Source: Archangium sp.
GTDB lineage: Bacteria; Myxococcota; Myxococcia; Myxococcales; Myxococcaceae
Length of the DNA: 64,000 nucleotides
Assembly: GCA_043773025.1 (NCBI GenBank)
Contig: JAYVFP010000261.1
Span: 1 to 64,000, forward strand
Direction of reading: 5' to 3'
The notes beneath the pieces were generated by a model. That model saw only the letters and a program-made list of their open reading frames with translations. It was not told the origin of the DNA and ran no database searches. How positions within the stretch are numbered: position 1 is the stretch's first letter; every line of letters starts with the position of its first letter. This document shows positions 729-42,960 of this stretch, one piece after another. A program made the translations under genes and the position numbers.

Positions 729-2048
729 CTACGGCGCGAGCGTCGGCGGCTTGTAGAGCAACACATCACCCGTCGTAGACCGCGCCAGCACCAGCACGTT
801 GCGCAGCGGGCTGTAGCGAATGCGCCCGTAAACACCGTTGGGTGGAAACGCGCCGGGGTCGTCACCCGTGGTCGTCGCCGTCACCCAGGTGTTCGTCGCA
901 GGGTCGAGCCACGAGAGGTCGCGCCCACCCGTCCACGCGACGAAACGATCGAGGCCGCGCACGTACTCGAAGCCGAGCTGCGAGCGCAGCGGGGCGCTCA
1001 AGCCAGTCGAGGTGATGGCCGTGCGAGGCACGCCGCCCGCCGTGAGATCCCACTGCTGCAACGTCACGCCGTCGCTGGTCACCACCAACCGGTTGCGCGA
1101 GGCGTCGACCGCCGCGCCCGAGTAGTACGACGCCGTGGCTGCGCCGCTGGGCAACGACTCCCACGCGTCGGTGAGCGCGTCGTAGCGCGCGAGGCCTCCG
1201 TTGCGCGCGTAGTAGAGGCGGCCCTGCGCGTCGCTGGCGCTGGTGCCCCCAATCTGAATGCCGGCGTTGTCGGCCTTGCGAAGCCAGCGACCGGTGGAGA
1301 AGTCGAAGGCCATCACCCGGCGCGACGTCGCCTGGCCCGAGGGGTACAGCGCCGACGAGCCGAGGTTGTAGAAGAAGCCGGTGGCCGACGAGAACGCGAC
1401 GTTGCCGTAGGTGTGCGTGCTGCGCGGTTGTTGATCATCGAGCTGCGAGGCGATGGTCGCGTCGTCACACTTGTCGTGCAACACGTAGCCCGACGGGGTG
1501 AGCCACGCGGGCGGCACGGTGAAGCTGTTCGCGCGCGGGTAGAGGCCGCAGGTCTCGGGGCTCTTGTCGTAGAACGCCGCGGGAATCGGGGCCCCATCGG
1601 CGAGCCCGTCGAGTGCAGCAGGGAGCTCGGTGTGCCGCCGCCACGCCATGCTCCCGAGATCGAAGGCGAAGACGTTGTTGAAGAAGCTGTCACCGTGGCC
1701 ACCGCCGAAGATGATCAATCGGTCGCGCAGCGAGTCGAACGCGCCGCCGCCCCACGCATCCATCACCATGTCGCAGGCGTAGTGGTTCGTCGATTGCGGA
1801 CACACCGCGTCCATGCGCGTGCCGGGCAGCGTCTTCCACGAATTGGGCGGCATCGCGGCGATGACGGCGTCGACGGGGCCGGTGCCTGCATCGATGGGCT
1901 CGACCACCCCCGCGTCGGCGAGCTCCGAGCCTGCGTCGGTCAGCGCGACTCCAGCGTCTTCACCGCTCGACGCGTCGGGCAGGCCCGCGACCGTTCCCGA
2001 ACAGCTCAACAGCACACACGCGCACAACACCGCCGATGGCTTTCTCAC
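729..2048 (-). CDS. secreted lipoprotein, Kelch/galactose-oxidase-like beta-propeller (hypothetical)
   Basis: 439-aa ORF. N-terminal lipoprotein signal (MRKPSAVLCACVLLSCSG). Repeated Gly/aromatic blades typical of beta-propellers. No catalytic motif recognised. Confidence 0.5.
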   Translation of the reverse strand: MRKPSAVLCACVLLSCSGTVAGLPDASSGEDAGVALTDAGSELADAGVVEPIDAGTGPVDAVIAAMPPNSWKTLPGTRMDAVCPQSTNHYACDMVMDAWGGGAFDSLRDRLIIFGGGHGDSFFNNVFAFDLGSMAWRRHTELPAALDGLADGAPIPAAFYDKSPETCGLYPRANSFTVPPAWLTPSGYVLHDKCDDATIASQLDDQQPRSTHTYGNVAFSSATGFFYNLGSSALYPSGQATSRRVMAFDFSTGRWLRKADNAGIQIGGTSASDAQGRLYYARNGGLARYDALTDAWESLPSGAATASYYSGAAVDASRNRLVVTSDGVTLQQWDLTAGGVPRTAITSTGLSAPLRSQLGFEYVRGLDRFVAWTGGRDLSWLDPATNTWVTATTTGDDPGAFPPNGVYGRIRYSPLRNVLVLARSTTGDVLLYKPPTLAP

Positions 2049-2083
2049 CGGCGCACTGTACGCGGCCCCTCAGGAAGCGTTGG

Positions 2084-2893
2084 TCACGTGATGTCCCAGA
2101 GGAGCCGGTAGTAGCGGGCGCGAGCAGGGTCGGGAGACACGCCGTACGCGTCGAGCAGCGCGCCTTCGTAGCCGGGCCCGTAGTTCCACTGCGCGCTCCA
2201 CGCGGCGATGGCGAGATCAGACCAGCGATCGGCCACGCCCAGCGCGCCGAGATCGACGTGGCCCGTGCAGTGACCCTCGTCGTCGATCAACGTGTTCGGA
2301 CCCGTGGCATCGCCGTGGCAGACCACGAGCTTGTCGACCGGCGGTGAGTCAGCGAGCTTCGCGAACGCTTCGTGGATGTCGAGGTCGCGATGCGAGGGGT
2401 GCCAGGTCGAGCGCTGCACCTTGCCGAGTGCGGCCTGCCGGCGGAGCTCGGTCAGCAGCACCGCGGGCTCCGCCGAGAACGGACATTGGTCGACCGGAAG
2501 CCGATCGTGAAAGGCACGCAGTCCAGCGCCGATCGCTTTGACTGCGCTCGCGGGGTCGCTCCTCCAGCGGCCTGAGACTGCGCTCTCTCCGGGAAGTGCT
2601 CGCGTTACGAGCCAGGACCCTGATGCATCGGCGCCGTGATCGAGCACTTCGGGGACATGGCCCCACGCGCGTGCCCAGATCATTCTGACTCGCTCGGCTT
2701 CGGTCGCCAAGCGGCTCTCTCCCGGCGTCCACTTGCAGAAGACGCGATCAGCGCCGCTGCCTATTTCCCAGGTCAGGCCTCCGTGATCGTTTCGCCAGAT
2801 GAGGTGGGCAAGGCGACCGGCAGCGAGGGTGTGCACTCGCGGCGGTACGGGCTGATTTTCTTTAGGCCGTCCGGCAACCATAGACTCCAGCAT
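2084..2893 (-). CDS. aminoglycoside 3'-O-phosphotransferase, APH(3') family
   Basis: 269 aa. C-terminal block VVCHGDATGPNTLIDDEGHCTGHVDLGALGVADRWSDLAIAAW...YYRLLWD closely matches the APH(3') catalytic and Mg-binding motifs (HGDxxxxN...D.GR.GVADRYQDLA). Confidence 0.75.
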   Translation of the reverse strand: MLESMVAGRPKENQPVPPRVHTLAAGRLAHLIWRNDHGGLTWEIGSGADRVFCKWTPGESRLATEAERVRMIWARAWGHVPEVLDHGADASGSWLVTRALPGESAVSGRWRSDPASAVKAIGAGLRAFHDRLPVDQCPFSAEPAVLLTELRRQAALGKVQRSTWHPSHRDLDIHEAFAKLADSPPVDKLVVCHGDATGPNTLIDDEGHCTGHVDLGALGVADRWSDLAIAAWSAQWNYGPGYEGALLDAYGVSPDPARARYYRLLWDIT

Positions 2894-2920
2894 TTCATCT
2901 TCGTGCGGCCCTCACCCCAA

Positions 2921-2943
2921 CCCTCTCCCACAGAGAGAGGGAG
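2921..2943. repeat. REP-like hairpin CCCTCTCCC-N-GGAGAGGG preceded by GGCCCTCACCCC
   Basis: Inverted repeat read directly from the sequence. The same composite motif recurs at 21650-21672 and, reverse-complemented, at 57357-57390. Confidence 0.6.
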
Positions 2944-2955
2944 ACAATGTAGGCG

Positions 2956-4080
2956 TCAGGGCAGCGTGAAGGTCGAGATGGTCACGCCCGCGCCCTGATT
3001 GCCACCGTTCGCGTCGCCCGGCTGAAACTGCCCGCAGTACCAACGCGTCACCCCATTCGCGCGTACCTCGACCTCGTAGGGGATCGGGCCAGGTGAAGAG
3101 CAGTGTTGGTAGTAGACGACCCGCGCGATGTACGTGCCGCTCGTGGGGGTGACGCCGGGCGAGTAGATGATGTTCTCCACGTTGATGTTGTCGATCCGAC
3201 AGGCGGCGTTGGAGTCGACGTCGAGCCAACCCTTCGCTCCACAGTTCGGAATGGGGATGGGAATGGGGAATGGCAGCGGCGGCGCGTTGGGGTTCACGCC
3301 GGGCTTGGCGTAGTAGATCTCGCAGGTGCCCCCGTCGGGCAGCGGCTCGACGAGGTGCAGGTCGAGATCCTCTGGCTGGTTGAAACGCAGGGTCACCTGC
3401 ACCGGCCCCGAGCGTCCGCGCAGTTGGCACTGGTTGCTGAGGCACTCGTACCCCTTGGGGCACTCGGTGGTGCACGACATGGTGCCCGCGTCGAAAGGCA
3501 AGCAGCGCGTGGTCATGCCCGCGTCGTCGAAGGTGGGCTGACCCGAGCCTCCGCCACCACCGCCGCCGGTGTTACCGGCCATGCAGGTGTTGGTGCCGAG
3601 ATCGCAAATGCTGCCGGGCACAGGGCAGTCGTCGGGCGAGACGCACTGCACACAGGCGCCGTTGGGGAAGACGGTCGGGTCGCACGCGGGCGTCGCTCCG
3701 CTGCAGCCGTTGCCCACCATGCAGACCACGCACTTGCCCAGACCCGCGTTCGAGATGGTTTGACAGATGGGCGTCGCGCCGCCGCAGCCCAGGTTCTCCG
3801 TGCAGGTCTTGCAGGTGTTGGTGGCGGGATCGCAGACGGGCGTGGTGCCGAAGCAGGTCGCAGTACAGCCACTGCCCGCGTCTTCACCCGAGCCCCCGCC
3901 CGCACCAGAGCCTCCGCCGAGACCCGAGCCGATGGGCGTCGCGCACTTGAAGGTGAGCGGATCGCACGTGAGCCCCGTGCCGCACCGCACGCCGTCGCAG
4001 GGATCGTTCGAGGTGGGCCCGCATTGACATCCGAACCAGGCAGAGACGAAGAACGCGATGGTGAAGGCACGGAGCTTCAT
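2956..4080 (-). CDS. secreted Cys-rich repeat protein with C-terminal beta-sandwich-like domain (hypothetical)
   Basis: 374 aa with signal peptide. Multiple CxxxC / 'C..TxxC' modules separated by Gly-rich linkers. Contains a PIPIPIP motif. Resembles myxobacterial Cys-rich repeat proteins. Confidence 0.5.
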   Translation of the reverse strand: MKLRAFTIAFFVSAWFGCQCGPTSNDPCDGVRCGTGLTCDPLTFKCATPIGSGLGGGSGAGGGSGEDAGSGCTATCFGTTPVCDPATNTCKTCTENLGCGGATPICQTISNAGLGKCVVCMVGNGCSGATPACDPTVFPNGACVQCVSPDDCPVPGSICDLGTNTCMAGNTGGGGGGGSGQPTFDDAGMTTRCLPFDAGTMSCTTECPKGYECLSNQCQLRGRSGPVQVTLRFNQPEDLDLHLVEPLPDGGTCEIYYAKPGVNPNAPPLPFPIPIPIPNCGAKGWLDVDSNAACRIDNINVENIIYSPGVTPTSGTYIARVVYYQHCSSPGPIPYEVEVRANGVTRWYCGQFQPGDANGGNQGAGVTISTFTLP

Positions 4081-4128
4081 CGCCCCGGCTTACACCTCCC
4101 TCGCCCCGAGAGACTGATGAAAGAGGTG

Positions 4129-4355
4129 CCTCGACTCCGCTCGGAACGAACGGACACCGCTCATCCCGAGCGGAGTCGAGGGATTACCTCGTCTTCGAGC
4201 GGCAAGTGCCCCCTCGACTGCGCTCGGGGAGACCGGTGATGAAACCCGATTCCTATTTCCGCCAACCCTCTCGGGACGAACGGACACCGCTCATCCCGAG
4301 CGGTGTCGGCTCGGGGAGACCGGTGATGGAAACCGATTCCTATTTCCGCCAACCC
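4129..4355 (+). repeat. composite dispersed repeat: S module (CCGAGCGGAGTCGAGGG, inverted pair) plus two copies of T module (CTCGGGGAGACCGGTGATGAAACCCGATTCCTATTTCCGCCAACCC)
   Basis: Direct sequence comparison. Related copies occur at 12862-12958, 36477-36501 and 42753-42960. This copy lies 10 bp from the stop of the 1810-aa gene. Confidence 0.8.
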
Positions 4356-4365
4356 GCGGGCGCCG

Positions 4366-7300
4366 TCACCTGGCCCGAGGTTTGCGGCCACGCGAAGGCA
4401 GCGCCTTGAGCAACTCCAGAGCCTCCTTCGTGTGCTGCCAAACAGTCATCGCCTTCACGCTGCCCTCCGAATCGCCCTGAAGCACCGTGCGAGCCGCGAG
4501 CGCGAGCTCCGACAACCGCTCCTGAATGAGCAGCATCTGCATGGCGACCTCTTCGCGGAACGCGCCGTCATTCTCGGAGTTTTGAGCCTGGTTCTTCGCA
4601 TTCAGAGCGATCTGTTCCAACACGGGCCCCAGATCGAGAGGAGCCGCCGCGGCAACCGGCTGAACGCGTACGGCCTCCGACAACTTCTCCAGGTACGGAG
4701 TCAGATCGACTGCCGGCACGTTGTTCTTCGCCAACGACTTCCCGAGCGTGAGCACCGCTTCTCGCAGCCCCTCGAGCCGCGCGCTCACGTCAGGTCGAGG
4801 CTGCGAAATGGCCGCGACCAGCGCATCGATCCGCGGACCCACCAGGTCGACCTTCGGCTCCTGTGAGTCCGTGGGCGCCTTGCGAGCCGCGTCGATGATC
4901 ACGTCCTTGAGCTGACCCAGCTCGACGCCGAGCGACGCAATCGAGCCCGTCACCCGCACCACGGGGTCGTCCTCTGCCCCACCCTGCACCTGGATGCGCT
5001 TGAAGCCGCGCTTGATTTCTTCCCACCTCGTGCGCTGCTCCGGGCTCTGCCGTTTCCGCAGCTCAGCGAGCTTGAGCAGGTTCTGCTCGGCGGCCGCGGT
5101 GAGCGTCTGCGACTCAGAGGCGTAGTGACCATCGAGCAGCACCTCGAGCTCGGCCTCGGTCATCGCGGCGACGATCTTCTCCGCGAGCTTGCTCATGTTG
5201 CGGTAGCTGCCCTGCAGCTTGAAGGGCGGCTCGGTGCGGAACCGATCATCCTGCGAGGCGCTCTTGATGTACTCCTGGTTCACCATCAGCAGCGTCTTCT
5301 GCACGTACGCGAAGCGCCGGGTGACCTCGACGATCTCGTTGAGCTCAGCCGCGCTGTACCCGTGCTCCATCTCGTTGACCGAGATGGGCCCGCCCTGCGC
5401 CATCGCGAGCACCCGGTGCAGATCACCCGTGGACCGCGTGAGCAAGGGCGCGGTGACCGCGTTCGCCGTGAGCGCGTTCTCCAGATAGCTGAGCGCGAAG
5501 AGATCCTTCTTGCCCCCCAAAATGTCGCCCAGGTTGTAGGTGTCGGCACGGTTGGCGAGCATGTCGGGAATGCGGAAGCGCTCGCCTGACTCGGTGTACG
5601 GGTTGCCGGCCATCACCACGCAGAACTTCTTGCCGCGCAGGTCGTACGTGCGCGTGCGGCCATTCCACACGCCTTCGACCTTGCGGGTGGCGTCGCACAA
5701 CGAGATGAACTTCTGCAGCAGCTCGGGGTTCGTGTGCTGGATGTCGTCGAGGTACAGCATCACGTTGTTGCCGAGCTCGAAGCTGAAGTTGATGCGATCG
5801 ACCTCTTGCCGGGCCGTGGCGTTGGGCGCCTCGGTGGGATCGACGCTGACCACCTCGTGACCCAACGACGGGCCGTTCACCTTCACAAAGGTGAGGCCCA
5901 GGCGGCTGGCGACGTACTCCATCAACGTGGTCTTGCCGTAGCCGGGTGGTGAGACGAGGAGCAACAGGCCCATGCGATCGGTGCGTTTGTTCTCACCTGC
6001 CACGCCGAGCTGCTTGGCGAGGTTGGCGCCGATCAGCGGCAGGTAGACCTCGTCGATGAGCCGGTTGCGCACGAAGCTCGAGAGCACCTTGGGCTTGAGC
6101 TCCTCGAGCCGCAGCTTGTGGCGGGCCTCGTCGAGCAGCACGCGCACCCTGGCGCGGTACTTCTGCCAGGAAGGCGTGCGCTCTTCGCGGAACCAGGTCA
6201 TGCGCTGCTCGAGCTCGTCGATGCGCACGGTGAGGCTCTGCGAGGTGATGCGCGGGTGCTGGCCGAGCAGACCTTTCGCTTCGAAGGCGAGCGGCGCCGA
6301 CGAGATGGCGCGTGACAACACGTGTTCGTCAGCCGCGATCAACGCCGCCGCTTCGGGAACGACGAGCAACCAATCGGCCGAGCGGGGCCCCGCCTGCTTC
6401 GCGTGCGCCTCCAGCCACTCCCGCGCGAGGCGGAACCGGCCGGCCACATCGCCTTCGAGCGCGCGCAGATCGTCGTCGAACACCAGCCGCTGGCCGGCGA
6501 GATCGAGCGAGCTGAAGAGATCATCACGCAGCGCGATCGCATCACCTGCGACCACGAAGCGCAGCGGCTCCTGCGCCAGCTCTTCTGCGAGGTACCGCGC
6601 GGCGACGGCCAGCTCAGGCGCGCTCACCTTGAGCCGCGAGCTCTCCACGAAGGTCTTGAGCGACGGCGTCAGCTCGTTCGCCACCGTCTCGAGCGCTGCG
6701 CTCCCCGGGTACCGCACCCGCAGCCGGCCCAGGCTCATCGCGCGCCGGTGGAACGCGGTCTTCAGCGTCTCGTCGCGCCAGCCCGCCCAGCACAAGGTGG
6801 CCAGCGTGCGAGGCCACGAAGGGAACCGCAGCAGATCCGCGCCTTCGTACACCTTGAGCAACTGCCCCAGGATGATCGCGGCATCTGAGTCATGCACGCC
6901 GCGCTCGTACCCATCGTCGAGCCGCTGCTGACTCCACTCACGGGTGATCGCGAGCAACCCCGCGCCCCGTTCAGCCGCGTGGAGCGAAGCCAGCGTCAGC
7001 CCCTTCTCACCCGACTCCGCCGCCTTGAGGATCAAGTGCGCGAGGAACTCGCCGCGGTACACCTCGGGTGATTCAGAGGTGAGGTTCTGATCCCAATACG
7101 CGCGCGCGGCGTCGATGTCGGGATCGCTGAGGCGCTGCAGGTAGTCAGAGCCCGACAGCTGAAGATACAGCCCGTCTTCGCGCGGAATGACCGTCGCTTC
7201 GAGCGGCTGCGTGTTCACGTTGAAGCGATACGGCCCCAGCTTCACCACCGCGGTGCCGCCCTCGAAGAGATCCTTGCGATCTCTGAGCTGCCGCAGCGCA

Positions 7301-9798
7301 TCTTGCTTGGCGGTCTTGAGCCGCGAGTCGAGCTCATCGGCCTTCACCGAGTCTTGCAGGGCCAACAACTGCGCGGTCAGGCTGCGCAGCTTCTGAATCA
7401 TCGGGTCGGCGGCGAAGTAGGTGTTGAGCTCGTCGTCGGTCGCGAACACCCTCCTCGTCACCGACTGCAGAATGCGATCGGCCGCGTCGAACAGGTTCTG
7501 CGCGCGCCGGTTGCGCTCGTCGACCAGCACCTGCTTGCGGCGCCCGAAGGCCTCGAGCAGCTCTTCACGACGGGTGGTCAGCTCGGCTGCGAACTCGTCG
7601 AAGTCCGAGAAACGCCCCTCCATCTCTTCGAGCTGCAAGGTGAGCCTGGTGAGCTGCTCGTCACACTTCTCGGGGCTGTCGACCAACGACAAGGCGCTGT
7701 CGATGCTCTGCGCGAACAGCTTGAACTGGCTCGCGAACTCACCGCGTTTCTCCGTACCGGTGAGCTCCTTCTTCTTCGCCTGCACCGTGGCGCGCGCGCG
7801 GTTCAGCTTCGAGAACACCTCAGAGATGTCTTCGAGGATCTTCGCCTTCTGCGTGGGGTCGCCCGCGTTGAGCCCGCCCACCACTTCACCCAGCAACGAG
7901 AGGCCGGCGCTCAGGCGCTCCACCTCGGTGACCAGCGGCGCCAGCTCGACGGTCTTGGTGACCTTGTCGGTCTGCACCGCCACCACGTGAACGCCCGCGT
8001 GCAGGGGCTCGAAGGCTTTAGGGGTGAGCAAGAACTCGACGCACCGCTTCGAGACGTCCTCGAAGGCCTTTCGCACTTCGTTTTCCATCGCCTCGATCTT
8101 CGGCAGCTCGATGTACCGAACCTCGCGCACCGTGATCAGGTGACCGAGCTGTTTGCGCAGCTCGGCCAGCGTGTCCATGAACGCGTCGGTGGTGGCGAGG
8201 TCGTCGGTGGTGACCTTCGAGAGCAGCGCCTGCTGCGTCGTGGTGGCCTGGCCGAGCGCTTCGGCCGCGCGGCGCTGCATCGAGAGCACCTTCTCGAACT
8301 CGTCGACGATGAGCTCAGCGTTCTTCTTGAGCTCGACGATGATCGGCAGCAGCGCGACTTCGGCGTGGCCCAGCCAGTGGAACTGGTCGATCACCCGGGT
8401 GCACGAAGAGATCAGCGCTTCATAGGTGCGGCGGGTCACCTGCTGCGCTTCAGCCAGCCGCTGCAGCGTGAGCACCTCAGAGATCCCGCGCACCAGCTCG
8501 GCGTTGCCCAGCTTGCCCAGCGCACCCTGCGGCGTCGGCGCGTTCGCCGCGAACTCGGCTGAGACGAACGGCGTCTGCCAGACCTGCACCGGATGAATGC
8601 GCGTGGGCTCATCAGAGGTGGCGCGGAAGACCACCATCTGCCCGTCGGGAAAAATGGAATAGCCGTGGCAGGTGATGGGCGCTGCGATCTCCTTGCGCAC
8701 CAGGTTGTACGGAAACAACACGTACTTGCCCTGGGCACGCTCGAAGAAGACGTAGAGCACGTCTTCTCCGTTGGGGCTGACCACCTTGCGCTGGAAGACG
8801 AGGCCACCGACGTCGGCCTCGAAGACCTTCGCTTCGCCGGTCTGCAGCACGAAGCCGCCGGGGAAGATGATGCCCTGCTCTTCGGGCAACGAGACACACG
8901 ACTGGCCAATCGCGTCAGCGCGGGTGACCTGGCGGGTGCGGGTGTTGAAGACGAGGTAGCGGTACGCGTCTTCGCGGAACGGCAACACCTTCAAGAGGAT
9001 CAACGCGCCGATGCGCACGAACCAGAACTCGGCGTCGTCGAGCGACTGGATCGCCTCGTGAACGGGCTCGACGTAGATGCCCTGCCCCGTCTCGGTGTTG
9101 TTCTCTATCTTGATGGTGAGATCGCCGCCCACCGTCTCGATGAAGAGTTCATCGAGGATGTTCACGTGCGGGTGCCGGCCCAACACGAAGTTCTCGCGCG
9201 TGGCCCGCGTGTATTCGAAGTCGTGCGTGGGCGGGATCACCACGTCGGCATCGCCGCGGTTGTCGAGGTACGTCAGCCGCCCCGAGGTATCGACCCCGAA
9301 ACGCAGCACCTTCACGTCGCGCAGCGTGTGGCCCGTCTTGAAGGTGGCCAGCAGCCGCGACTCGTTCTTCTCGAGGTGGTTGAGCCGCGCGTCTTTGTAG
9401 AAACGGAAGAGCTCTTCGAAGTCCTTCACGAAGCCGCGGTCTTCCAGGAAGCCGTGGCCGTCGCTGCGCGGCAGCTCTGAGAAGTCGAACGTGCCGTCGG
9501 CCCCGCGCACGAACTTGTGCAGCGAGAACGCGTCTTTCACCGAGCGATCCTGCTTGAGCCCCATGAAGACGTTGAACCCGAGGAGCAGGTGCTGCCCCAC
9601 CGGCACGATGTCGCGCGGCACGCAGTTGTGCTCGGTGCGCACCCGCTCGGTGGCGAGCACGGCGAGCTCCTGCCCGCCGAACTCGGTGCGGCGCCGCGTG
9701 TTGAGCGCGTTGGTGCGCTCGCCCAATGACTTGGCGGTCGTCAGCAAGCGGCCACGAATCACCTCGTAGCTGCCACCGGCCATCGTGTCGGAGGCCAC
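4366..9798 (-). CDS. giant (1810 aa) coiled-coil protein with MoxR/AAA_5-like ATPase module
   Basis: Single uninterrupted ORF. Walker A LLLVSPPGYGKTT, Walker B VMLYLDDIQ (DD variant). MoxR-like downstream signature NPELLQKFISL...FCVVMAGNP...RFRIPDMLANRAD at about aa 1235-1400. About 700 aa of E/L/K/R-rich predicted coiled coil lies between an N-terminal ~430-aa globular region and the ATPase. The GTG start overlaps the flotillin stop (TAAGTG); an alternative ATG lies at 9783. Confidence 0.7.
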   Translation of the reverse strand: MASDTMAGGSYEVIRGRLLTTAKSLGERTNALNTRRRTEFGGQELAVLATERVRTEHNCVPRDIVPVGQHLLLGFNVFMGLKQDRSVKDAFSLHKFVRGADGTFDFSELPRSDGHGFLEDRGFVKDFEELFRFYKDARLNHLEKNESRLLATFKTGHTLRDVKVLRFGVDTSGRLTYLDNRGDADVVIPPTHDFEYTRATRENFVLGRHPHVNILDELFIETVGGDLTIKIENNTETGQGIYVEPVHEAIQSLDDAEFWFVRIGALILLKVLPFREDAYRYLVFNTRTRQVTRADAIGQSCVSLPEEQGIIFPGGFVLQTGEAKVFEADVGGLVFQRKVVSPNGEDVLYVFFERAQGKYVLFPYNLVRKEIAAPITCHGYSIFPDGQMVVFRATSDEPTRIHPVQVWQTPFVSAEFAANAPTPQGALGKLGNAELVRGISEVLTLQRLAEAQQVTRRTYEALISSCTRVIDQFHWLGHAEVALLPIIVELKKNAELIVDEFEKVLSMQRRAAEALGQATTTQQALLSKVTTDDLATTDAFMDTLAELRKQLGHLITVREVRYIELPKIEAMENEVRKAFEDVSKRCVEFLLTPKAFEPLHAGVHVVAVQTDKVTKTVELAPLVTEVERLSAGLSLLGEVVGGLNAGDPTQKAKILEDISEVFSKLNRARATVQAKKKELTGTEKRGEFASQFKLFAQSIDSALSLVDSPEKCDEQLTRLTLQLEEMEGRFSDFDEFAAELTTRREELLEAFGRRKQVLVDERNRRAQNLFDAADRILQSVTRRVFATDDELNTYFAADPMIQKLRSLTAQLLALQDSVKADELDSRLKTAKQDALRQLRDRKDLFEGGTAVVKLGPYRFNVNTQPLEATVIPREDGLYLQLSGSDYLQRLSDPDIDAARAYWDQNLTSESPEVYRGEFLAHLILKAAESGEKGLTLASLHAAERGAGLLAITREWSQQRLDDGYERGVHDSDAAIILGQLLKVYEGADLLRFPSWPRTLATLCWAGWRDETLKTAFHRRAMSLGRLRVRYPGSAALETVANELTPSLKTFVESSRLKVSAPELAVAARYLAEELAQEPLRFVVAGDAIALRDDLFSSLDLAGQRLVFDDDLRALEGDVAGRFRLAREWLEAHAKQAGPRSADWLLVVPEAAALIAADEHVLSRAISSAPLAFEAKGLLGQHPRITSQSLTVRIDELEQRMTWFREERTPSWQKYRARVRVLLDEARHKLRLEELKPKVLSSFVRNRLIDEVYLPLIGANLAKQLGVAGENKRTDRMGLLLLVSPPGYGKTTLMEYVASRLGLTFVKVNGPSLGHEVVSVDPTEAPNATARQEVDRINFSFELGNNVMLYLDDIQHTNPELLQKFISLCDATRKVEGVWNGRTRTYDLRGKKFCVVMAGNPYTESGERFRIPDMLANRADTYNLGDILGGKKDLFALSYLENALTANAVTAPLLTRSTGDLHRVLAMAQGGPISVNEMEHGYSAAELNEIVEVTRRFAYVQKTLLMVNQEYIKSASQDDRFRTEPPFKLQGSYRNMSKLAEKIVAAMTEAELEVLLDGHYASESQTLTAAAEQNLLKLAELRKRQSPEQRTRWEEIKRGFKRIQVQGGAEDDPVVRVTGSIASLGVELGQLKDVIIDAARKAPTDSQEPKVDLVGPRIDALVAAISQPRPDVSARLEGLREAVLTLGKSLAKNNVPAVDLTPYLEKLSEAVRVQPVAAAAPLDLGPVLEQIALNAKNQAQNSENDGAFREEVAMQMLLIQERLSELALAARTVLQGDSEGSVKAMTVWQHTKEALELLKALPSRGRKPRAR

Positions 9799-11898
9799 TT
9801 ACTTCTTCTCTTTGCCGGCGAACTTCGCGAGCAGCGCAGCAGCCGCCAGGTTCTGAGCGTCAGCCGTGATGCCGGGCTTCGAGAGCACGTCCTTGATGTC
9901 TTGCGGCAGCTCGCGCTCACCGGTGAGGTAGGGCTTGAGCAGGGTCTTCATGGTGTCGGTGCTGGTCGCGGTCGCTTCCACGGCGTGAGAGAGCGTGACG
10001 GCCTTGACGAACTGGTCGAAGAACTGACCGTCGCCGCCCACGATGTTGATCTTCGCGTTGGCGAGCGCCGCCGACATGGTCTGCGCCTGGCTGGCCGCGA
10101 TGTCCTTGCGCACGTGCAGCGTCTCGAGCTCGATCTGCTTGTCCTTCTCGAGCCGCAGGCGGAACTCTTCGTGGTCCTTGGTGGCGCCCTGGAGCTGAGC
10201 CATCGACTTCGCCTTCTCCGAGAGGCCCTTCGCTTCGGCGAGCAGCTTTTCCTGAATACCGAGCGCTTCGGCCATCACCTTCGAGCGGGTCGCCTCGCCT
10301 TCGGCAGCGCCCTGCTTCTGCGTGGCTTCGGCCTGCGCCTCGAGCACCTTGGCGGCAGACAGCCCCTTCTGCAGATCGCCTTCGGCTTCGGCCAGCATCC
10401 TCAAGCGCAGCACGTTGGCCGCGGCCTGGCCCTGCTTCTCGGTCGCGACGGCATCGGCTTCACGCACGCGTACCTGGGCAAGCCCCTGCTTCTCCTGCGC
10501 CAGCGCGGTCGCTTCGAGCACGCGGGCCTCAGCGAGGCCTTCCGCTGCCGACTCCGCCTGCGTGCCTTCCGCCATGCGGATCTTCGCGCGGGCTTCCTTG
10601 TCGGCCGACTCGAGCGCCGCGTCGGCGACGATCAGCCGCTGACGGGCTTCATGTTTGGCCACTTCTTCGGAGGCCTCAGCCGCCTTCACGCGTTCGATCG
10701 ACAGGCCCTGCGCGAGCGCCTCGGCGTCGATGATCGCAGCGTCTTTCTTGCGCTGCGACTCGGCGACCATGCGCAACTGCTTGATGCTCTCTTCTTCGGT
10801 GGCGACCTTCTTGTCGACCGCGATGCGGGTCGAGATGACGTCGGCGATCGCCTTGCGCTCGATCTCAAGCGCCTTCTCCTTGCTGATGCGCATCAGCTCG
10901 ACTTCGCGTTCACGAGAGATGGCCTCGAGCGCACGATCCTTCGCCACGCGCTCGGTCTCGATGCCCACCACGCGCTCGCGGTTCTTCTCGGCGACCTGTA
11001 CCTGGCGCTGCTTGTTCTGCTCGTTGATCTGCAGCTCTTCTTCTGAGCGCACGCGGGACAGCTCGGCCTTCAGGTGCTCTTCTTGCTGCACGCGCTGGGT
11101 CTCGGCCTGCTCGCGCGCCTGAATGGTGTCGATCTCGCGCTTCTGCTTGGCCTGCGCTTCGGCGCGCTGACGCTCGAGCGCGAAGACGGCTTCGTCGGCC
11201 TCGACGTTCTGCTTCATCATCTTCTTCCGCTCGTCCTGCCGAAAGTCGTTGGTGAGCACGTTCTGAATGGTGGTCAGTTCGGTGATCTTCCGAATGCCCT
11301 GCGCGTCGAGAATGTTCTCGCGATCGAGCATCTCGATCGGCGTCTGCTCGAGGAAGTCGATGGCGACGTCTTCGAGCATGTAGCCGTTGAGATCCTTACC
11401 GACGACCGAGACGATCTGGTCCTTGAAGACCTCACGCTCCTTGTAGAGGTCTTCGAAGTTGAGCCGCTTGCCGACGGTCTTGAGCCCTTCTGAGAACTTG
11501 GCCTCGAAGAGCTCCTGCAGCGTGGCGAGATCAGAGGCGCGCACGCAGCCGACGGCGCCGGCCACCTTGAGCACGTCTTCGACGGTCTTGTTCACGCGCA
11601 CGAAGAAGCTGACCTTGATGTCCGCGCGGATGTTGTCGGCGCAGATGAGGCCCTGCTTGCCGTGGCGGTGGATCTCGATGGTCTTCAGCGAGATGTCCAT
11701 CACCTCGGAGCGGTTGATGATCGGGATCACCACGGCTCCGGTGAACGACACCTTGGGCTCGGCCTTCATGGTGTTGACGATCAACACCTGGCCTTGCGCG
11801 ACCTGCTTGTAGAAGCGCGCCAGCACGAAGCCGAAGGCGAGGACGAACAGAAGCCCGATGCCGATGACCGAGGCGATGAGAATTAGGGTTGCTTCCAT
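9799..11898 (-). CDS. flotillin-like SPFH/band-7 protein (YqiK family)
   Basis: 699 aa. N-terminal TM helix, then SPFH domain (..VIPIINRSEVMDISLKTIE..), then a long EA/Q-rich coiled-coil tail typical of flotillins. Strong SD (AGGGGGAAG) before the ATG. Confidence 0.85.
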   Translation of the reverse strand: MEATLILIASVIGIGLLFVLAFGFVLARFYKQVAQGQVLIVNTMKAEPKVSFTGAVVIPIINRSEVMDISLKTIEIHRHGKQGLICADNIRADIKVSFFVRVNKTVEDVLKVAGAVGCVRASDLATLQELFEAKFSEGLKTVGKRLNFEDLYKEREVFKDQIVSVVGKDLNGYMLEDVAIDFLEQTPIEMLDRENILDAQGIRKITELTTIQNVLTNDFRQDERKKMMKQNVEADEAVFALERQRAEAQAKQKREIDTIQAREQAETQRVQQEEHLKAELSRVRSEEELQINEQNKQRQVQVAEKNRERVVGIETERVAKDRALEAISREREVELMRISKEKALEIERKAIADVISTRIAVDKKVATEEESIKQLRMVAESQRKKDAAIIDAEALAQGLSIERVKAAEASEEVAKHEARQRLIVADAALESADKEARAKIRMAEGTQAESAAEGLAEARVLEATALAQEKQGLAQVRVREADAVATEKQGQAAANVLRLRMLAEAEGDLQKGLSAAKVLEAQAEATQKQGAAEGEATRSKVMAEALGIQEKLLAEAKGLSEKAKSMAQLQGATKDHEEFRLRLEKDKQIELETLHVRKDIAASQAQTMSAALANAKINIVGGDGQFFDQFVKAVTLSHAVEATATSTDTMKTLLKPYLTGERELPQDIKDVLSKPGITADAQNLAAAALLAKFAGKEKK

Positions 11899-11940
11899 GA
11901 TGGTACTTCCCCCTGATGGGTGACTTCGTGGGACGACGGC

Positions 11941-12693
11941 TCAGCGCCGCCGGACCCGACCGGAGATGATCTGCGCCGCCCGGGTCGGGTCGTTCAGCGC
12001 TTCGATTTCTTGAGGCATCAGCCAGTCAATCGGCTCGATTTCGTAGGTGTCCTGGGCCGAGTCGAAGTCGACCAGGATCGCGCGGTCGCCCTTCTTGAGC
12101 GTGTTCGCCTTGGGGCAGATCACGTGCACGTTGAGCCCGGCTGCTCCGTCGTCGACCTGCGCGGTGCCGAAGGTGGCATCCACCCGGCCTGAGGTGATGG
12201 TGCAGATCTGCCCAAGCGAATCACGCCTCCGCGCGGGCCGGCTCTGATCGAGCGCCTTGCCCAACGGCCGCAGCAACACCGCGGCGCCCAGCAGGCCGCC
12301 CACCAGCGAGATCAACAGCAGCGCCGATTGAAAGAGGACGTTCGCCGGCGCGAGAAGGAGCGTGCCGAGGGTGCTCACCGCCCAGGCGGAGAGCGCGATG
12401 ACGCTCAAGGTGATGGTGATGGGGACCTTGCCCAGACCCAGTGTGGCCAGGACACCCGCTTCCGCGCGGTCGCCCAGGTCTGCGTCGTGATCGCCGGCCA
12501 CCGCCTCGACCGTGCCCTTGATTGCGCCCGTGGTCGCGTCGCCGATTGCCTTCACGCCGCCCGTCACCGCGTCACCACCATGAAAGGCGGCGCCCGTCAC
12601 CAGCGCGAAGATCCAATACCCCACCACGACGCCCAACAGCACGGTCAGCGGCACCGTGGGGAAGCTCGTGATGGCCTGAAGGAACGGGTCCAT
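11941..12693 (-). CDS. NfeD-like membrane protein (YqiJ family; TM region plus C-terminal OB fold)
   Basis: Hydrophobic N-terminal half. C-terminal GQICTITSGRVDATFGTAQVDDGAAGLNVHVICPKANTLKKGDRAILVDFD is an NfeD/YqiJ OB-fold. It sits 42 nt upstream of the flotillin gene. Start chosen at the internal ATG (MDPFLQAI..); the ORF track extends to 12891. Confidence 0.65.
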   Translation of the reverse strand: MDPFLQAITSFPTVPLTVLLGVVVGYWIFALVTGAAFHGGDAVTGGVKAIGDATTGAIKGTVEAVAGDHDADLGDRAEAGVLATLGLGKVPITITLSVIALSAWAVSTLGTLLLAPANVLFQSALLLISLVGGLLGAAVLLRPLGKALDQSRPARRRDSLGQICTITSGRVDATFGTAQVDDGAAGLNVHVICPKANTLKKGDRAILVDFDSAQDTYEIEPIDWLMPQEIEALNDPTRAAQIISGRVRRR

Positions 12694-12861
12694 GAAGTGG
12701 CGCGGACTCGACCAGTCGCGGGCCCAAACATCAACCTGTTCCGACTGCCGATTTCCCCCCGAAAGTTCCGCATTTTCTCGACGGAGCACGACAGGCATGA
12801 GGCGTTTTGGCGCTCGCCTGAAACCCACTGTCCATTCTTCTGGGTGGCCATCCATCCAGAG

Positions 12862-12958
12862 TGGAGTCGAGGGATTGACTCTCCGTCGCACTGCAAGTGC
12901 CCCCTCGACTGGGCTCGGGGAGACCGGTGTGGAAGCCGATTCCTATTTCCGCCAAGGT
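12862..12958 (+). repeat. dispersed repeat copy (S-like plus one T module)
   Basis: GGAGTCGAGGGATTGAC...AGTGCCCCCTCGACTGGGCTCGGGGAGACCGGTGTGGAAGCCGATTCCTATTTCCGCCAAGG. Same orientation as the 4129-4355 copy. It abuts the stop codon of the DUF309 gene. Confidence 0.8.
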
Positions 12959-13536
12959 TACTGAGCGTCGTCGCGGCTCAACGAAACGCTCAGGTGATTG
13001 CCGTCACGGTGCACCTGCACCTCCCAGGGCCGGCAGCACACCGGGCAGTCTTCGATGTAGTGCGCGTCTTCGGCCTCTTCCGGGGCCACGCTGACCATCA
13101 CCGGCTCTCCGCAGTACGGGCAGCGCGCTTCGTGATCGAAACTTTCACCCGCGGTCAGCGAGCCGTTCTCGGGCCACAGCGGCCGGGCCTCGTCACGCCA
13201 GGGCCCCTGCGCGTGCTCGAGGCTGGTGACCAACCGTTCACGCAGGCCATCGACGTCGATGCCGTCGAACGCGTCACCGACTTCCCCCAACCGCTCCAGC
13301 GCGCGCAGCAGCAGCCGGTTCGCGCCCAGTTCCTTGCCTTGCGTGTGGTGATGAAGCGCCGCCGACCAGAGCACCAACACCTGCAGCACCCGCTTCTCCG
13401 GGCCGCGCGTCTGGCGCCAGCCAGATTCCCACGCTTCGTGGGCAGCGAAGAACTCGCCTGCTTCGAAACGCTTCCGGCCCTCGTCGAGCGAGGCAATAAA
13501 GGTCGGTGAAGCCATGGCGAGGAGTAACGCGGTCAA
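12958..13536 (-). CDS. DUF309-like N-terminal domain fused to CPxCG zinc-ribbon domain (hypothetical)
   Basis: 192 aa. N-terminal FEAGEFFAAHEAWE...W is the DUF309 signature. C-terminal CPYCGEP...CPVCCRPWE resembles the Cys-rich CPxCG family. Confidence 0.55.
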   Translation of the reverse strand: MTALLLAMASPTFIASLDEGRKRFEAGEFFAAHEAWESGWRQTRGPEKRVLQVLVLWSAALHHHTQGKELGANRLLLRALERLGEVGDAFDGIDVDGLRERLVTSLEHAQGPWRDEARPLWPENGSLTAGESFDHEARCPYCGEPVMVSVAPEEAEDAHYIEDCPVCCRPWEVQVHRDGNHLSVSLSRDDAQ

Positions 13537-13545
13537 CCCCCAGAA

Positions 13546-14418
13546 TCAGCGTGCTCGCAGACCTAAGATCTGCCGGGCCTCATCGGGGGTGGCCACTACC
13601 CGGCCCGACTCCACCGCGATTCTCGCCATGGCCTCGATGAGCTGGCCGTTGCTCGACGCCTTGGTTCCGTCGGGCAAGTAGAAGGTGTCTTCGAGGCCGG
13701 TGCGCAGGTCGCCACCCAGCTCGGCGCAGCGGCGGTGCAGCGCCCAGACCTCCTGACGGCCGATGCCGATCACCTGCCAGTGCGTACCGGGCAGCATCTC
13801 TTCGAGCAACAACGGCAGCCACTGCGGCTTGTTGGGCATGCCCGACTCGACGCCCATCACCAGCGAGACATGCGGTGGGTTGGGCACCATGCCGCGCTTG
13901 GCGAACATCGCCACGCTGCGCAGGATGCCGGTGTCGAAGCACTCGCACTCGGGCACGACGCCGTACTCTTTCATCGCCTTCGCGAACGCCTCAATCTTCG
14001 AGACCTGGTTGTCGAACAGCAGCGGCGACCACGCCCACTCGTTGTTCGATCTCAACTTCAAATAGTTCAGCGAGCCCGCGTTGAGCGCGGCCATCTCGGG
14101 CCTCACCGCTTCGAGACACGAGAGCGGCGCGCTGATGTCGTCGCCCATCACGCCCGTCGAGAGGTTCAGCAGAATGTCGGGCACCTCGGCGCGAATGGCG
14201 TCGCAGATGTTCCTCGCGACCTTCGGATCCCACGAAGGCATGCGGCCGTTCCCCGGCTCCTGATCGCGGAAGTGAACGTGCACGATCGACGCGCCGGCAT
14301 CACGCGCGCGACGGGCCTCTTGGGCCATCTGCTCTGGAGTGACCGGAACGTGGTGCTGCTCGGGATCGGTGAGAACGCCGGTCAACGCACAGGTGATGAC
14401 TGCCTTCTTCGTAGCCAT
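13546..14418 (-). CDS. 3-keto-5-aminohexanoate cleavage enzyme family (BKACE/DUF849)
   Basis: KKAVITCALTG...HVHFRD...NLSTG...ECFDTG blocks characteristic of Kce-like TIM-barrel enzymes. Start taken at the internal ATG (MATKKAV). Confidence 0.6.
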   Translation of the reverse strand: MATKKAVITCALTGVLTDPEQHHVPVTPEQMAQEARRARDAGASIVHVHFRDQEPGNGRMPSWDPKVARNICDAIRAEVPDILLNLSTGVMGDDISAPLSCLEAVRPEMAALNAGSLNYLKLRSNNEWAWSPLLFDNQVSKIEAFAKAMKEYGVVPECECFDTGILRSVAMFAKRGMVPNPPHVSLVMGVESGMPNKPQWLPLLLEEMLPGTHWQVIGIGRQEVWALHRRCAELGGDLRTGLEDTFYLPDGTKASSNGQLIEAMARIAVESGRVVATPDEARQILGLRAR

Positions 14419-14486
14419 GGGGAAGACCTCTGCTGGTGACGATATTGATTCCTGAGTCAACGCGCACGCCTGTTAGAGAACCGCTG

Positions 14487-15812
14487 ATGGATCTGTTCGA
14501 TCGTGCCGCCAGTGTCGAGGCCGAGGCGAGGGCGCCGTTGGCCGAGCGCATGCGCCCCCGCACGCTGGAAGAGTACGTCGGGCAGGAGCACCTCACGGGC
14601 ACGGGCCGACTGTTGCGCAAGGCGATCGAGCTCGATCAGGTGCCCTCGATGATCTTCTGGGGCCCCCCCGGAACCGGGAAGACCACGCTCGCGCGCATCA
14701 TCGCGAAGGCGACGGGCGCCCACTTCGAGGCCGTCTCGGCGGTGCTCAGCGGCGTGAAAGATCTGCGCGAGGCAGTGGCGGCGGCGGAAGAGCGGTGGAA
14801 GATGAACCGCAAGCGCAGCATCTTGTTCGTCGACGAGATCCACCGCTTCAACAAGGCGCAACAAGACGCGCTGCTGCCCCACGTCGAGAAGGGCACGCTC
14901 ACCCTGCTCGGCGCGACCACGGAGAACCCCTCGTTCGAGGTGAACGCAGCGCTGCTCTCGCGCATGAGGGTGCTCACGTTGCGGGGGCTCGAAGAAGACG
15001 AGCTGCGCGAGCTGCTCAAACGCGCCGTGGCCGATCCGCGTGGGCTCGATGGCAAGGTGACCATCGACGACGACGCGCTCGCGTTTCTGGCGATGATCGC
15101 CGCGGGTGACGCGCGCAAGGCGCTCACGGCGCTCGAGGTGGCGGCCAAGTACGGCGGCACGCACGTCGATCGCCACGGAGCAGAAGAGGCGGTGCAACAG
15201 CGCACCCTGCTCTACGACAAGGGCGGCGAGGAGCACTACAACGTCATCTCTGCCTTCATCAAATCGATGCGCGGGTCAGACCCCGATGGGGCGGTGTACT
15301 GGCTCGCCCGGATGATCGAGGCCGGCGAAGATCCCCGGTTCATCGTGCGGCGCATGGTGATCTTCGCGAGCGAAGACGTGGGCAACGCAGATCCCCAGGC
15401 GCTCGGGGTCGCCACCAGCGCGCTTCAGGCGGTCGAGCTGATGGGTTTCCCCGAGGGCACGTTGCCGCTCACGCAGGCCGTCACGTACCTCGCGATGGCG
15501 CCCAAATCGAACACCGCGCTGACCACGTACGCGAAGGCGCGCGAGGCGATTGAGAAACACGGGCCGCTGCCGGTGCCGATGCACTTGAGGAACGCACCTT
15601 CGAAGTTGATGAAGTCACTCGGGTACGGCGGCGGGTATCAGTACCCGCACGACTTCGAGGGCCACTTCGTGGTCGAGAGCTACCTGCCGGAAGGCTTGAG
15701 GAACGAAAAGTTCTACGAGCCGAGCAACAACGGCTTCGAAGTCAGGCACCGCAAACGCATCGACGAGATCCGAGCCAACCGAGCCCCGAAGGAACCAGGC
15801 GAAGACGGTTGA
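14487..15812 (+). CDS. rarA: replication-associated recombination protein A (RarA/MgsA AAA+ ATPase)
   Basis: RPRTLEEYVGQEHL...FWGPPGTGKTTLARIIA...FVDEIHRFNKAQQDALLPHVE plus the C-terminal MgsA helical domains. Full-length collinear match to the family. Confidence 0.85.
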   Translation: MDLFDRAASVEAEARAPLAERMRPRTLEEYVGQEHLTGTGRLLRKAIELDQVPSMIFWGPPGTGKTTLARIIAKATGAHFEAVSAVLSGVKDLREAVAAAEERWKMNRKRSILFVDEIHRFNKAQQDALLPHVEKGTLTLLGATTENPSFEVNAALLSRMRVLTLRGLEEDELRELLKRAVADPRGLDGKVTIDDDALAFLAMIAAGDARKALTALEVAAKYGGTHVDRHGAEEAVQQRTLLYDKGGEEHYNVISAFIKSMRGSDPDGAVYWLARMIEAGEDPRFIVRRMVIFASEDVGNADPQALGVATSALQAVELMGFPEGTLPLTQAVTYLAMAPKSNTALTTYAKAREAIEKHGPLPVPMHLRNAPSKLMKSLGYGGGYQYPHDFEGHFVVESYLPEGLRNEKFYEPSNNGFEVRHRKRIDEIRANRAPKEPGEDG

Positions 15813-15824
15813 CGAGGGCCAGTG

Positions 15825-18859: not shown

Positions 18860-19013
18860 GTCCACGGTCAGAGTGCTCAGCAAGTGCACTGCCAACCCAT
18901 GAGTCGGAGCAACCGCTTGATGCGAGGAGAATTTCCGGGAAAGGGAGAAGGAGGCACCGGTGTCAGCAGTAACCCACTGGGTGGTTATCGGGGTCAAGCC
19001 GACCCAGGCAGGC

Positions 19014-19944
19014 TCAACTCGCGGAAGCGAGGACCGGTGCCTGGAACAGACTGATCTTGTTACGTCCTTCGCGCTTCGCTCGGTAGAGCGCCTCATCCGC
19101 CGTTCGGACGAGCTGCTCTGAGGTGTTGACGGCCCTCCCCGGAAAACCCGAGACCCCGAACGAGGCCGTGACCTTCAGACCTGAAGGACCCGCTTTGATC
19201 CCCTGCATTTCCGCAACGATACGTTCGGCCACGGTCAACGCGCCGGCGAGGTGGGTCTTCGGCAGCAGCACCGCGAACTCTTCTCCACCGTACCGGGCCA
19301 CGAAGTCGGTCTCGCGAACGGAGGCTTTCACGCACGCGGCCGTGGCGAAGAGCACCTCGTCACCCACCTGGTGGCCCAAGCTGTCGTTCACGTTCTTGAA
19401 GTGATCGAGGTCGACCAGGATCAACGCGAGCGGGTCGTCGTAGCGCTGGGCGCGGCGAAACTCTTCGCGCAGTCGATCTTGAAAGTGACGGTGATTGGCG
19501 ACCTGGGTGAGCCCGTCGGTGACGGCCAGCTCGTGCAGCCGCTCTGATTCGGCCCTGGCCGCTCGCAAGGCCTGGTGCACTTCCATGCGTCGCAGGGCCC
19601 GCGCCACCACCTCGCCCGGCTTGACCGGCTTGACGAAGTAGTCGTCGCAGCCCTGGCCGAACGCTGACGAGCGAACCACCGGATCGTCGGTGTTGGAGAG
19701 CAGCAGAACCGGCGTCTGCCCGCCTTCCGAGCGGAAGTGATGCAGCACCGAAAGCCCACTCTGGGCAGCGAGCTCGACGTCGACGATCGCCACGTCGATG
19801 GGCCCGTCGATCAGGTGACCAAACCCCTCAGAGGCCGAGCGCGCAGTGAGCACCCTGGCGCCCGCGTCTTCCAGCTCACGCACGAGCGGGTCGCCTGACG
19901 AGGTCGCGTCATTGACGACGAGCGCTGTCCAGGCAACCCCCATG
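19014..19944 (-). CDS. response regulator-diguanylate cyclase (REC-GGDEF)
   Basis: REC domain followed by a GGDEF domain with an intact GGEEF active site (RYGGEEFAVLL). Start at the internal ATG (MGVAWT). Confidence 0.8.
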
Positions 19945-19976
19945 GCGGTGGCATAACTCTGTTTTGTCCCCGGCGC

Positions 19977-42752: not shown

Positions 42753-42960
42753 GGTCATCCCGAGAGGGTCGGCGGAAAGAGGAATCGGGTTCCATCACCG
42801 GTCTCCCCGAGAGGGTTGACGGAAATAGGAATCGGGTTCCGTCACCGGTCTCCCCGAGAGGGTTGACGGAAATAGGAATCGGGTTCCGTCACCGGTCTCC
42901 CCGAGCCCAGTCGAGGGGGCACTTCCGCATCGCGCAACAGTGGCATCTCGACTGCGCTCG
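42753..42960 (-). repeat. dispersed repeat copy in inverted orientation: three tandem 47-bp T modules plus S-like modules
   Basis: GGCGGAAA(G/T)AGGAATCGGGTTCC(A/G)TCACCGGTCTCCCCGAGAGGGTT, three times, then CCCAGTCGAGGGGGCACT. Begins 45 bp after the stop of the TIG-repeat gene. Confidence 0.8.

Follow-up and report, generated by a model that had tools for sequence, protein, structure and literature searches.

A conserved NfeD-like, flotillin and giant AAA+ ATPase gene trio of the bac operon type in Archangium sp., a candidate membrane stress module

We analyzed a 64,000-nucleotide stretch of Archangium sp. DNA (assembly GCA_043773025.1, contig JAYVFP010000261.1, positions 1 to 64,000; hereafter the window), in which three adjacent genes encode a small YqiJ/NfeD-like membrane protein, a flotillin/YqiK-like SPFH protein and a giant soluble AAA+ ATPase of the DUF3686 family (Table 1). 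The initial annotation had described three co-directional, tightly spaced genes, and the open reading frames (ORFs), all on the minus strand, and their junctions agree with this, including the 42 nt between the NfeD-like stop codon and the flotillin ATG. At the second junction the string TAAGTG is present as described, but the flotillin TAA and the GTG start of the giant gene abut with a 0-nt gap rather than overlap; an alternative ATG start lies 5 codons inside the GTG. The mechanical ORF of the NfeD-like gene runs past the ATG at 12693 up to a GTG at 12891, and the ATG is the supported start, since an alignment of 33 homologues has a common M-x-x-F-L beginning. Homologues of the giant protein align over 100% of its length at up to 95% identity; the 1,810-aa ORF is therefore one gene without a frameshift, as the initial annotation had it. 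The segment is one operon-like unit.

The trio is almost certainly a conserved unit of the bacCDE type. In Pseudomonas aeruginosa (locus L085) the genes encode, in order, DUF2170, PspA, proteins of 213, 688 and 1,746 aa and a PLD protein, followed by YaeQ, RecJ and LasB, and this order is that of PA3732 to PA3727, the bac operon bacA-F. The window proteins show 29% identity to BacC/PA3730 (NfeD-like), 50% over 640 aa to BacD/PA3729 (flotillin) and 47% over 1,689 aa to BacE/PA3728 (ATPase). The orthologous bacC-bacD-bacE genes have the same order as in the window and are co-transcribed and co-regulated, whereas bacA (DUF2170/CesT-like), bacB (PspA) and bacF (PLD-like) have no counterpart at the window trio. 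Ravi et al. 2024 (mSystems, PMC11237479) described a CesT/Tir-PspA-flotillin-YqiJ/YuaF-"novel AAA+ ATPase" operon together with an abbreviated form; the window trio is the abbreviated form, the CesT/DUF2170 and PspA dyad at the 5' end of the full form being absent from it. The bacA-F genes were found to be co-transcribed by reverse transcription PCR, and BacB-F were up 6-13.5-fold in a bacA mutant (Wallart et al. 2024). For the PspA gene PA3731, defects in biofilm, swarming, rhamnolipid and virulence were shown, as was induction by osmotic shock (Mace et al. 2008). The 17 genes with induction in all phage-infected samples include PA3728-PA3732, and PA3728 also appears on a list of genes with recurrent mutations in isolates from cystic fibrosis; bacA and bacB are the only bac genes studied in depth. 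The suggestion of the initial annotation that the system is uncharacterized thus holds for the ATPase and not for the operon type, which is known from Ravi et al. 2024 and the P. aeruginosa bac genes.

With each GTDB species represented by a single genome, a profile scan gave at least 585 genomes with a relative of the giant ATPase. The best 80 of these loci, from Myxococcota, Actinomycetota, Gammaproteobacteria, Planctomycetota and Acidobacteriota, were surveyed together with three earlier loci by tblastn with the window proteins. A flotillin gene lies immediately upstream of the ATPase gene on the same strand in 79-81 of these 83 loci, and a YqiJ-like gene lies upstream of the flotillin gene in 75, which answers, very strongly in the affirmative, the question raised by the initial annotation of whether homologues of the giant protein recur beside SPFH/NfeD genes. 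Exceptions are of three kinds, and nearly all arise from contig ends too near the gene (L003, L039, L072, L010 and L052). In a Myxococcales metagenome-assembled genome (L018), three same-strand cell-surface genes (2020-7315; OmpA with thrombospondin repeats, DUF11 and laminin-G-like) split the flotillin gene from the ATPase gene, which are 6.4 kb apart there. Among the sampled copies of the giant gene, only that of Sorangium sp. So ce233 (L002, CP150319.1) has neither a flotillin nor an NfeD-like gene within 10 kb upstream. The next gene upstream of it encodes 978 aa and runs in the other direction; this copy may be a paralogue.

More distant members were obtained by a search with a 32%-identical homologue, and six neighbourhoods were inspected, comprising an unassigned metagenome contig, two Bacteroidota, one Verrucomicrobiota, Gilliamella and a PilZ-fused form. 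Genes of ~220 aa and ~700 aa lie directly upstream in all six, and tblastn identified them as NfeD-like and flotillin homologues; with the P. aeruginosa locus, all seven further loci have the same gene order, even where identity falls to 34-41%. Gene order and strand are thus shared by essentially all of the 90 loci having enough upstream sequence. The adjacency of the trio is therefore far beyond chance, and it is conserved across at least seven phyla. The gap between the flotillin and ATPase genes is -4 nt in 12 loci and below 20 nt in 35 of 82, and such short gaps suggest that the two genes are translationally coupled. In all-against-all clustering of the ORFs of the surveyed loci, nothing besides the flotillin and NfeD-like genes was universally conserved next to the ATPase gene.

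In 14-15 gammaproteobacterial loci a DUF2170 gene (E 2.5e-50) and a PspA/IM30 gene (E 2e-49) lie directly upstream of the trio, and a PLD-like gene (E 1.9e-31) often comes after it. CesT_Tir and PspA genes are found directly upstream in Mangrovivirga and Hymenobacter, both of the Bacteroidota. In a member of the Puniceicoccaceae (Verrucomicrobiota; L089:14629-17136) PspA is located 3.5 kb downstream of the trio, where it adjoins a gene for a secretin, a type of protein classically known to induce the Psp response. Lineage-specific extras located downstream of or inside the gammaproteobacterial unit are a rhomboid, a TerB-like ORF, TelA and one SF1 helicase (extension loci L047:3668-4996, 13125-13811; L050:7583-7819, 13193-13756, 14422-17163; L064:14026-15120). 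The TerB-like ORF, of ~79 aa and below the Pfam threshold, lies between the flotillin and ATPase genes. TelA and TerB tie the unit to tellurite-resistance-type stress genes.

The giant ATPase has more than 6,200 homologues at 90% clustering, and full-length members of its family have about 1,600-2,000 aa. Like these, it combines an N-terminal DUF3686 (PF12458, aa 25-474, E 1.7e-196), a DUF7902 (PF25472, aa 594-678, E 8e-23) and one C-proximal AAA+ module in a chain of such length. Pfam matches around aa 1279-1402 are weak (AAA, 33.9 bits; AAA_5, 24.5 bits against a threshold of 22, E 2.9e-5), and in NCBIfam, PADLOC and PDB sequence searches matches were confined to the P-loop segment. A hydrophobicity scan of the trio gave no transmembrane or other hydrophobic segment in this protein. 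Two AlphaFold2 models were built from 46-sequence alignments, one of residues 1-700 (predicted local distance difference test, pLDDT, 87.4; predicted template modelling score, pTM, 0.72) and one of residues 840-1640 (pLDDT 85.3, pTM 0.72). In them the ~700-aa heptad-like stretch is not one long coiled coil but a spectrin-repeat-like run of 20-50-residue helices (aa ~426-840) followed by a small beta unit and a conserved globular helical domain. Likewise, the supposed ~400-aa coil-rich tail corresponds to the AAA lid and a conserved helical region to about aa 1600, followed by a poorly conserved end. A long connecting helix is predicted between the middle domain and the AAA+ alpha/beta core (aa ~1278-1422), in which a beta-hairpin (aa 1373-1386) precedes sensor 1, and the lid and helical region after the core are predicted to extend to about aa 1640.

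The middle domain carries the motif GYERGVHDSDAA (G-Y-E-R-G-V-H-D-S-D-A-A) at aa 963-974 (window 6877-6912). Among 20 diverse homologues G967, H969 and D972 are invariant and G963, Y964, D970 and A973 are conserved in at least 90%; R997 is also invariant. The motif, for which there is no family or structural match, sits in a confidently modelled helical domain that separates the scaffold from the AAA+ module, and it could form a second functional site. The ATPase motifs quoted in the initial annotation were located (Table 1), and the Walker A Lys, the Asp-Asp of Walker B, the sensor-1 Asn, R1417 and GSYR do not vary among 20 homologues with identities as low as 32%. Because the Walker A, Walker B, sensor 1 and Arg motifs are invariant, the giant protein is likely to be an active nucleoside triphosphatase (NTPase). 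Some members of the family have a fused PilZ domain (PF07238; P0426, P0444 and P0449; L091:1445-6976), which hints at control of the ATPase by cyclic di-GMP in those lineages.

The AAA+ core has the fold and motifs of the MoxR/AAA_5 type. Its best structural likeness, together with that of the lid, is to the AAA modules of MoxR CbbQ/NorQ, RavA, midasin and dynein, the closest solved structures being CbbQ and NorQ (228-240 residues aligned at 3.4 A). MoxR-type modules and the giant protein share the AAA_5-type helix after Walker B, the beta-hairpin before sensor 1 and a G-S-x-R motif in the lid. MoxR ATPases normally act with a VWA partner. The giant protein differs from them in lacking such a partner, in the Asp-Asp of its Walker B, in having the module buried in 1,810 aa and in its marginal sequence similarity; neither the stand-alone size of ~250-350 aa nor the nearby VWA/MIDAS partner that define MoxR proteins is found. 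The MoxR-like reading of the initial annotation therefore stands for the core and not for family membership: the giant protein would work in the manner of a MoxR module without belonging to the MoxR family. SMC, Rad50 and SbcC proteins have an ABC-type head divided between the two termini, which an antiparallel coiled coil with a hinge or zinc hook connects. An identity with them was rejected, as the N-terminus is beta-rich and the single P-loop lies at aa 1283-1291, and domain and structure-sequence searches gave no SMC_N or Rad50 match.

The flotillin consists of an N-terminal transmembrane segment or hairpin (aa 1-31, its one hydrophobic segment), an SPFH domain (aa 32-179), a long Ala/Glu-rich helical region and a conserved C-terminus. 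When aa 1-230 were used as query, Band_7 (PF01145) matched the SPFH domain (E 6.9e-11; score 43 bits, cut-off 23.6), but the full-length protein had zero Pfam matches, and the Pfam flotillin C-terminal model also went undetected. The low-complexity helical region presumably trips the HMMER bias filter. Homologous flotillins in the fetched loci likewise have a "-" for Pfam Band_7 in precomputed tables. Automated annotation therefore tends to miss the SPFH identity of such full-length proteins, which hides the linkage. The protein is 27% identical to E. coli YqiK over 428 aa (BLASTP, E 2e-33). As the SPFH domains of ATPase-linked flotillins share 50-87% identity with one another across phyla and no more than 27% with YqiK, these proteins, of about 680-725 aa compared with 553 aa for YqiK, form a dedicated flotillin subfamily.

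The NfeD-like protein has three transmembrane helices, which are its three hydrophobic segments, an acidic loop and a putative C-terminal oligonucleotide/oligosaccharide-binding (OB)-like domain. Neither the NfeD nor the YqiJ_OB model of Pfam matched it when E values up to 10 were allowed, and YqiJ_N matched 1 of 33 homologues, with a weak match also in the Verrucomicrobiota homologue. The family profile aligns with E. coli YqiJ by hhalign (89.7% probability, E 1.9e-6, 131 columns spanning transmembrane helices 2-3 and the C-terminal domain) though these Pfam models do not match, and the protein is labelled YqiJ/NfeD-like on this basis, its OB fold remaining putative. E. coli yqiJ-yqiK and B. 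subtilis yuaF-floT have the same two-gene core, a three-transmembrane protein with an OB-like domain, which is putative in the window protein, followed by an N-terminally anchored flotillin; unlike the window trio, yqiJ-yqiK has no third ATPase gene.

On one side the trio is neighboured by Kelch, APH and Cys-rich lipoprotein genes, and on the upstream side by DUF309/CPXCG, BKACE, MgsA/RarA, NtrC-type regulator, hybrid kinase and GGDEF genes. The last four are not conserved beside the trio in other lineages. In its closest relatives (L004-L006) the trio is bordered by the same flanking genes. An 85-nt direct repeat flanks the unit (4162-4246 and 12853-12937, 84% identity), with a 47-nt core that is also present at 4309-4355. 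Two copies lie downstream of the trio, one upstream and three in tandem, with a 47-nt period, at about 42771-42906; six exact or near-exact copies were found where 0.03 would be expected by chance. The initial annotation was right that repeats bracket the unit. An interpretation as ends of a mobile element was rejected: the core recurs at ~42.8 kb and the flanking genes are conserved in the relatives, and the repeats are therefore a dispersed intergenic family, which resembles elements of the REP or MITE type.

Table 1. Positions in the window of the trio, the domains and motifs of the giant ATPase, and other features
Feature	Position	Strand	Remarks
YqiJ/NfeD-like gene, 250 aa from ATG	11941..12693	minus	translation; orthologue of P. 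aeruginosa BacC/PA3730
Flotillin/YqiK-like SPFH gene, 699 aa, ATG start	9799..11898	minus	orthologue of BacD/PA3729 (PaFlo3)
Giant soluble AAA+ ATPase gene, DUF3686 family, 1,810 aa, GTG start	4366..9798	minus	orthologue of BacE/PA3728 (PA14_16190)
DUF3686 region, aa 25-474	8377..9726	minus	N-terminal helix aa 9-40, beta-rich domain aa 46-408 (~27 strands), start of helical region; predicted
Helical-bundle (spectrin-repeat-like) scaffold, aa ~426-840	7279..8523	minus	AlphaFold models; includes DUF7902 (7765-8019)
Middle region, aa ~851-1192: small beta unit and conserved globular helical domain	6223..7248	minus	model pLDDT about 90
MoxR(CbbQ/NorQ)-like AAA+ module and lid, aa ~1240-1575	5074..6081	minus	motifs, predicted model
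C-terminal tail, aa ~1640-1810, poorly conserved	4369..4881	minus	consensus mostly "x" after about aa 1640; composition: predicted helical, low-complexity
Walker A SPPGYGKTT, aa 1283-1291	5926-5952	minus	motif position
Walker B LYLDD, Asp-Asp replacing Asp-Glu	5743-5757	minus	LYLDDIQH = aa 1348-1355
Sensor 1 MAGNP, aa 1396-1400	5599-5613	minus	motif position
IPDMLANRAD, aa 1410-1419	5542-5571	minus	motif position
QGSYRNM	5194-5214	minus	motif position
MgsA/RarA-type AAA+ gene	14436-15812	plus	2-6 kb upstream of trio, with the next two
NtrC-type sigma-54 response regulator	15825-17300	minus	upstream of trio
Hybrid histidine kinase	17297-19096	minus	upstream of trio
GGDEF response regulator	19014-20507		6 kb upstream of trio
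Dispersed intergenic repeat family, core GGCGGAAATAGGAATCGG...CACCGGTCTCCCCGAGC	4137-4355, 12853-12958, 42771-42906	last on other strand	sequence match

These data led us to propose the following model. The flotillin would be anchored by its N-terminal hydrophobic segment and, with its three-transmembrane YqiJ/NfeD-like partner, would line the cytoplasmic side of the inner membrane as an SPFH cage or microdomain. The single MoxR(CbbQ/NorQ)-type AAA+ module of the giant protein probably forms a ring and is preceded by a long N-terminal arm, predicted to consist of the beta-rich DUF3686 domain and spectrin-like helical bundles. This arm would dock on the flotillin assembly, and ATP turnover would remodel flotillin and/or PspA polymers at the membrane during envelope stress. 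Genetic linkage and domain identities are what was observed here, and we infer that the ATPase touches the flotillin, assembles into a ring and hydrolyses ATP, and which substrate it acts on. We view the unit as a membrane stress module because a pair of the cage family is combined with a competent-looking ATPase, PspA recurs beside it and the Pseudomonas genes are induced by membrane-perturbing conditions. A role in membrane stress or homeostasis seems probable, and the explanation as a whole only slightly less so; the specific remodelling mechanism is tentative. The HflK/C-FtsH and prohibitin-m-AAA systems, in which an SPFH cage is paired genetically and physically with a membrane AAA+ ATPase, provide a functional analogy only, FtsH being a membrane-anchored AAA protease of the classical clade, whereas the giant protein, from another AAA+ clade, is soluble and lacks a protease domain. 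In B. subtilis the SPFH protein YdjI is described as linking PspA to the membrane (PMC8581546).

Several observations weigh against this model. A tblastn search of the full 64 kb detected neither PspA nor DUF2170. The window trio is not adjoined by PspA, CesT-like or other stress genes, none was found in the myxobacterial and actinobacterial loci, and no sigma-54-like site was found upstream of the window trio. As the initial annotation had pointed out, there is no VWA partner: none is conserved in about 90 loci, and a lone VWA gene (M. stipitatus) is on the opposite strand. The Asp-Asp of Walker B could make hydrolysis slow and switch-like instead of supporting motor activity, and the structural statements on the giant protein rest on predicted models throughout. 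Deletion of paFlo3 (bacD) led to ~20% less biofilm and no stress phenotype. In the literature searched there was no study of the giant ATPase in any organism, no paper with "DUF3686" and no MoxR-flotillin link.

Three other explanations were considered, all of them weaker. Defence systems commonly include large NTPases that bear repeat arms, and the flotillin/NfeD pair might sense envelope perturbation while the giant NTPase switches on an anti-phage or inter-bacterial response, possibly abortive infection. A patchy distribution such as horizontal transfer would give (discussed for PaFlo3), the phage induction of the Pseudomonas orthologues and the gammaproteobacterial extras (PLD/HKD-family, TelA, TerB-like ORF, rhomboid and one SF1 helicase) are in keeping with such a conflict system. 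Phage induction, however, is also classic for Psp stress systems, the three-gene core has no recognizable effector or toxin domain, and the window locus is not a defence island but lies among housekeeping genes, syntenic with its relatives. PADLOC-DB v2 gave no significant match, the best being IetA (E 4.3e-4) over ~30 residues of the P-loop, and nothing for the flotillin and NfeD-like proteins, and we consider a conflict function improbable.

It is less probable still that the ATPase is a MoxR-type maturation chaperone that inserts a cofactor or activates a client, comparable to CbbQ/CbbO with Rubisco or NorQ/NorD with nitric-oxide reductase, with the flotillin as a docking platform only. CbbQ and NorQ as the closest solved structures and the above-threshold AAA_5 match agree with this, but no VWA/MIDAS partner or candidate client enzyme is conserved beside its gene, only the flotillin and NfeD-like genes being universally linked, and the giant protein is ~six times the size of CbbQ/NorQ chains (250-270 aa), with domains that no MoxR has. 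The names given to PF12458 ("ATPase involved in DNA repair") and by NCBI ("DNA repair ATPase") imply a repair enzyme, and there are weak RuvB matches (sequence E 4e-5 over ~50 residues; Foldseek E 5e-6). Only the name, however, speaks for this role, which is scarcely credible, and the annotation "DNA repair ATPase" is unsupported.

The membrane stress model thus retains from the initial annotation the flotillin linkage and the MoxR-like core, and departs from it in the coiled-coil layout and in the novelty of the unit. To our knowledge, no energy-consuming remodeller is known for flotillin cages or for PspA/Vipp1 (ESCRT-III-like) polymers. A more speculative and rather unlikely extension is that the DUF3686 giant is a hexameric MoxR-like hub with six arms, each of beta-domain and spectrin-like parts, that would build up, take apart or reset flotillin cages and/or ESCRT-III-like PspA polymers as a functional analogue of Vps4; a Vps4-like ATPase "appears absent in bacteria" according to a 2025 review (PMC7619361). 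The remodeller reading is supported by the locking to flotillin in at least seven phyla, the repeated linkage with PspA and the intact catalytic motifs. The published studies of Pseudomonas and of comparative genomics would have sufficed to propose a remodeller candidate, and the window adds a myxobacterial example. What is gained here is that the repair annotation is unsupported, that the motor is MoxR(CbbQ/NorQ)-like, that the flotillin linkage extends down to 34% identity and that the linkage with PspA is also found in Bacteroidota. The DUF3686 giants are the only ATPases consistently encoded with flotillin, and this makes them the obvious candidates for such a remodeller.

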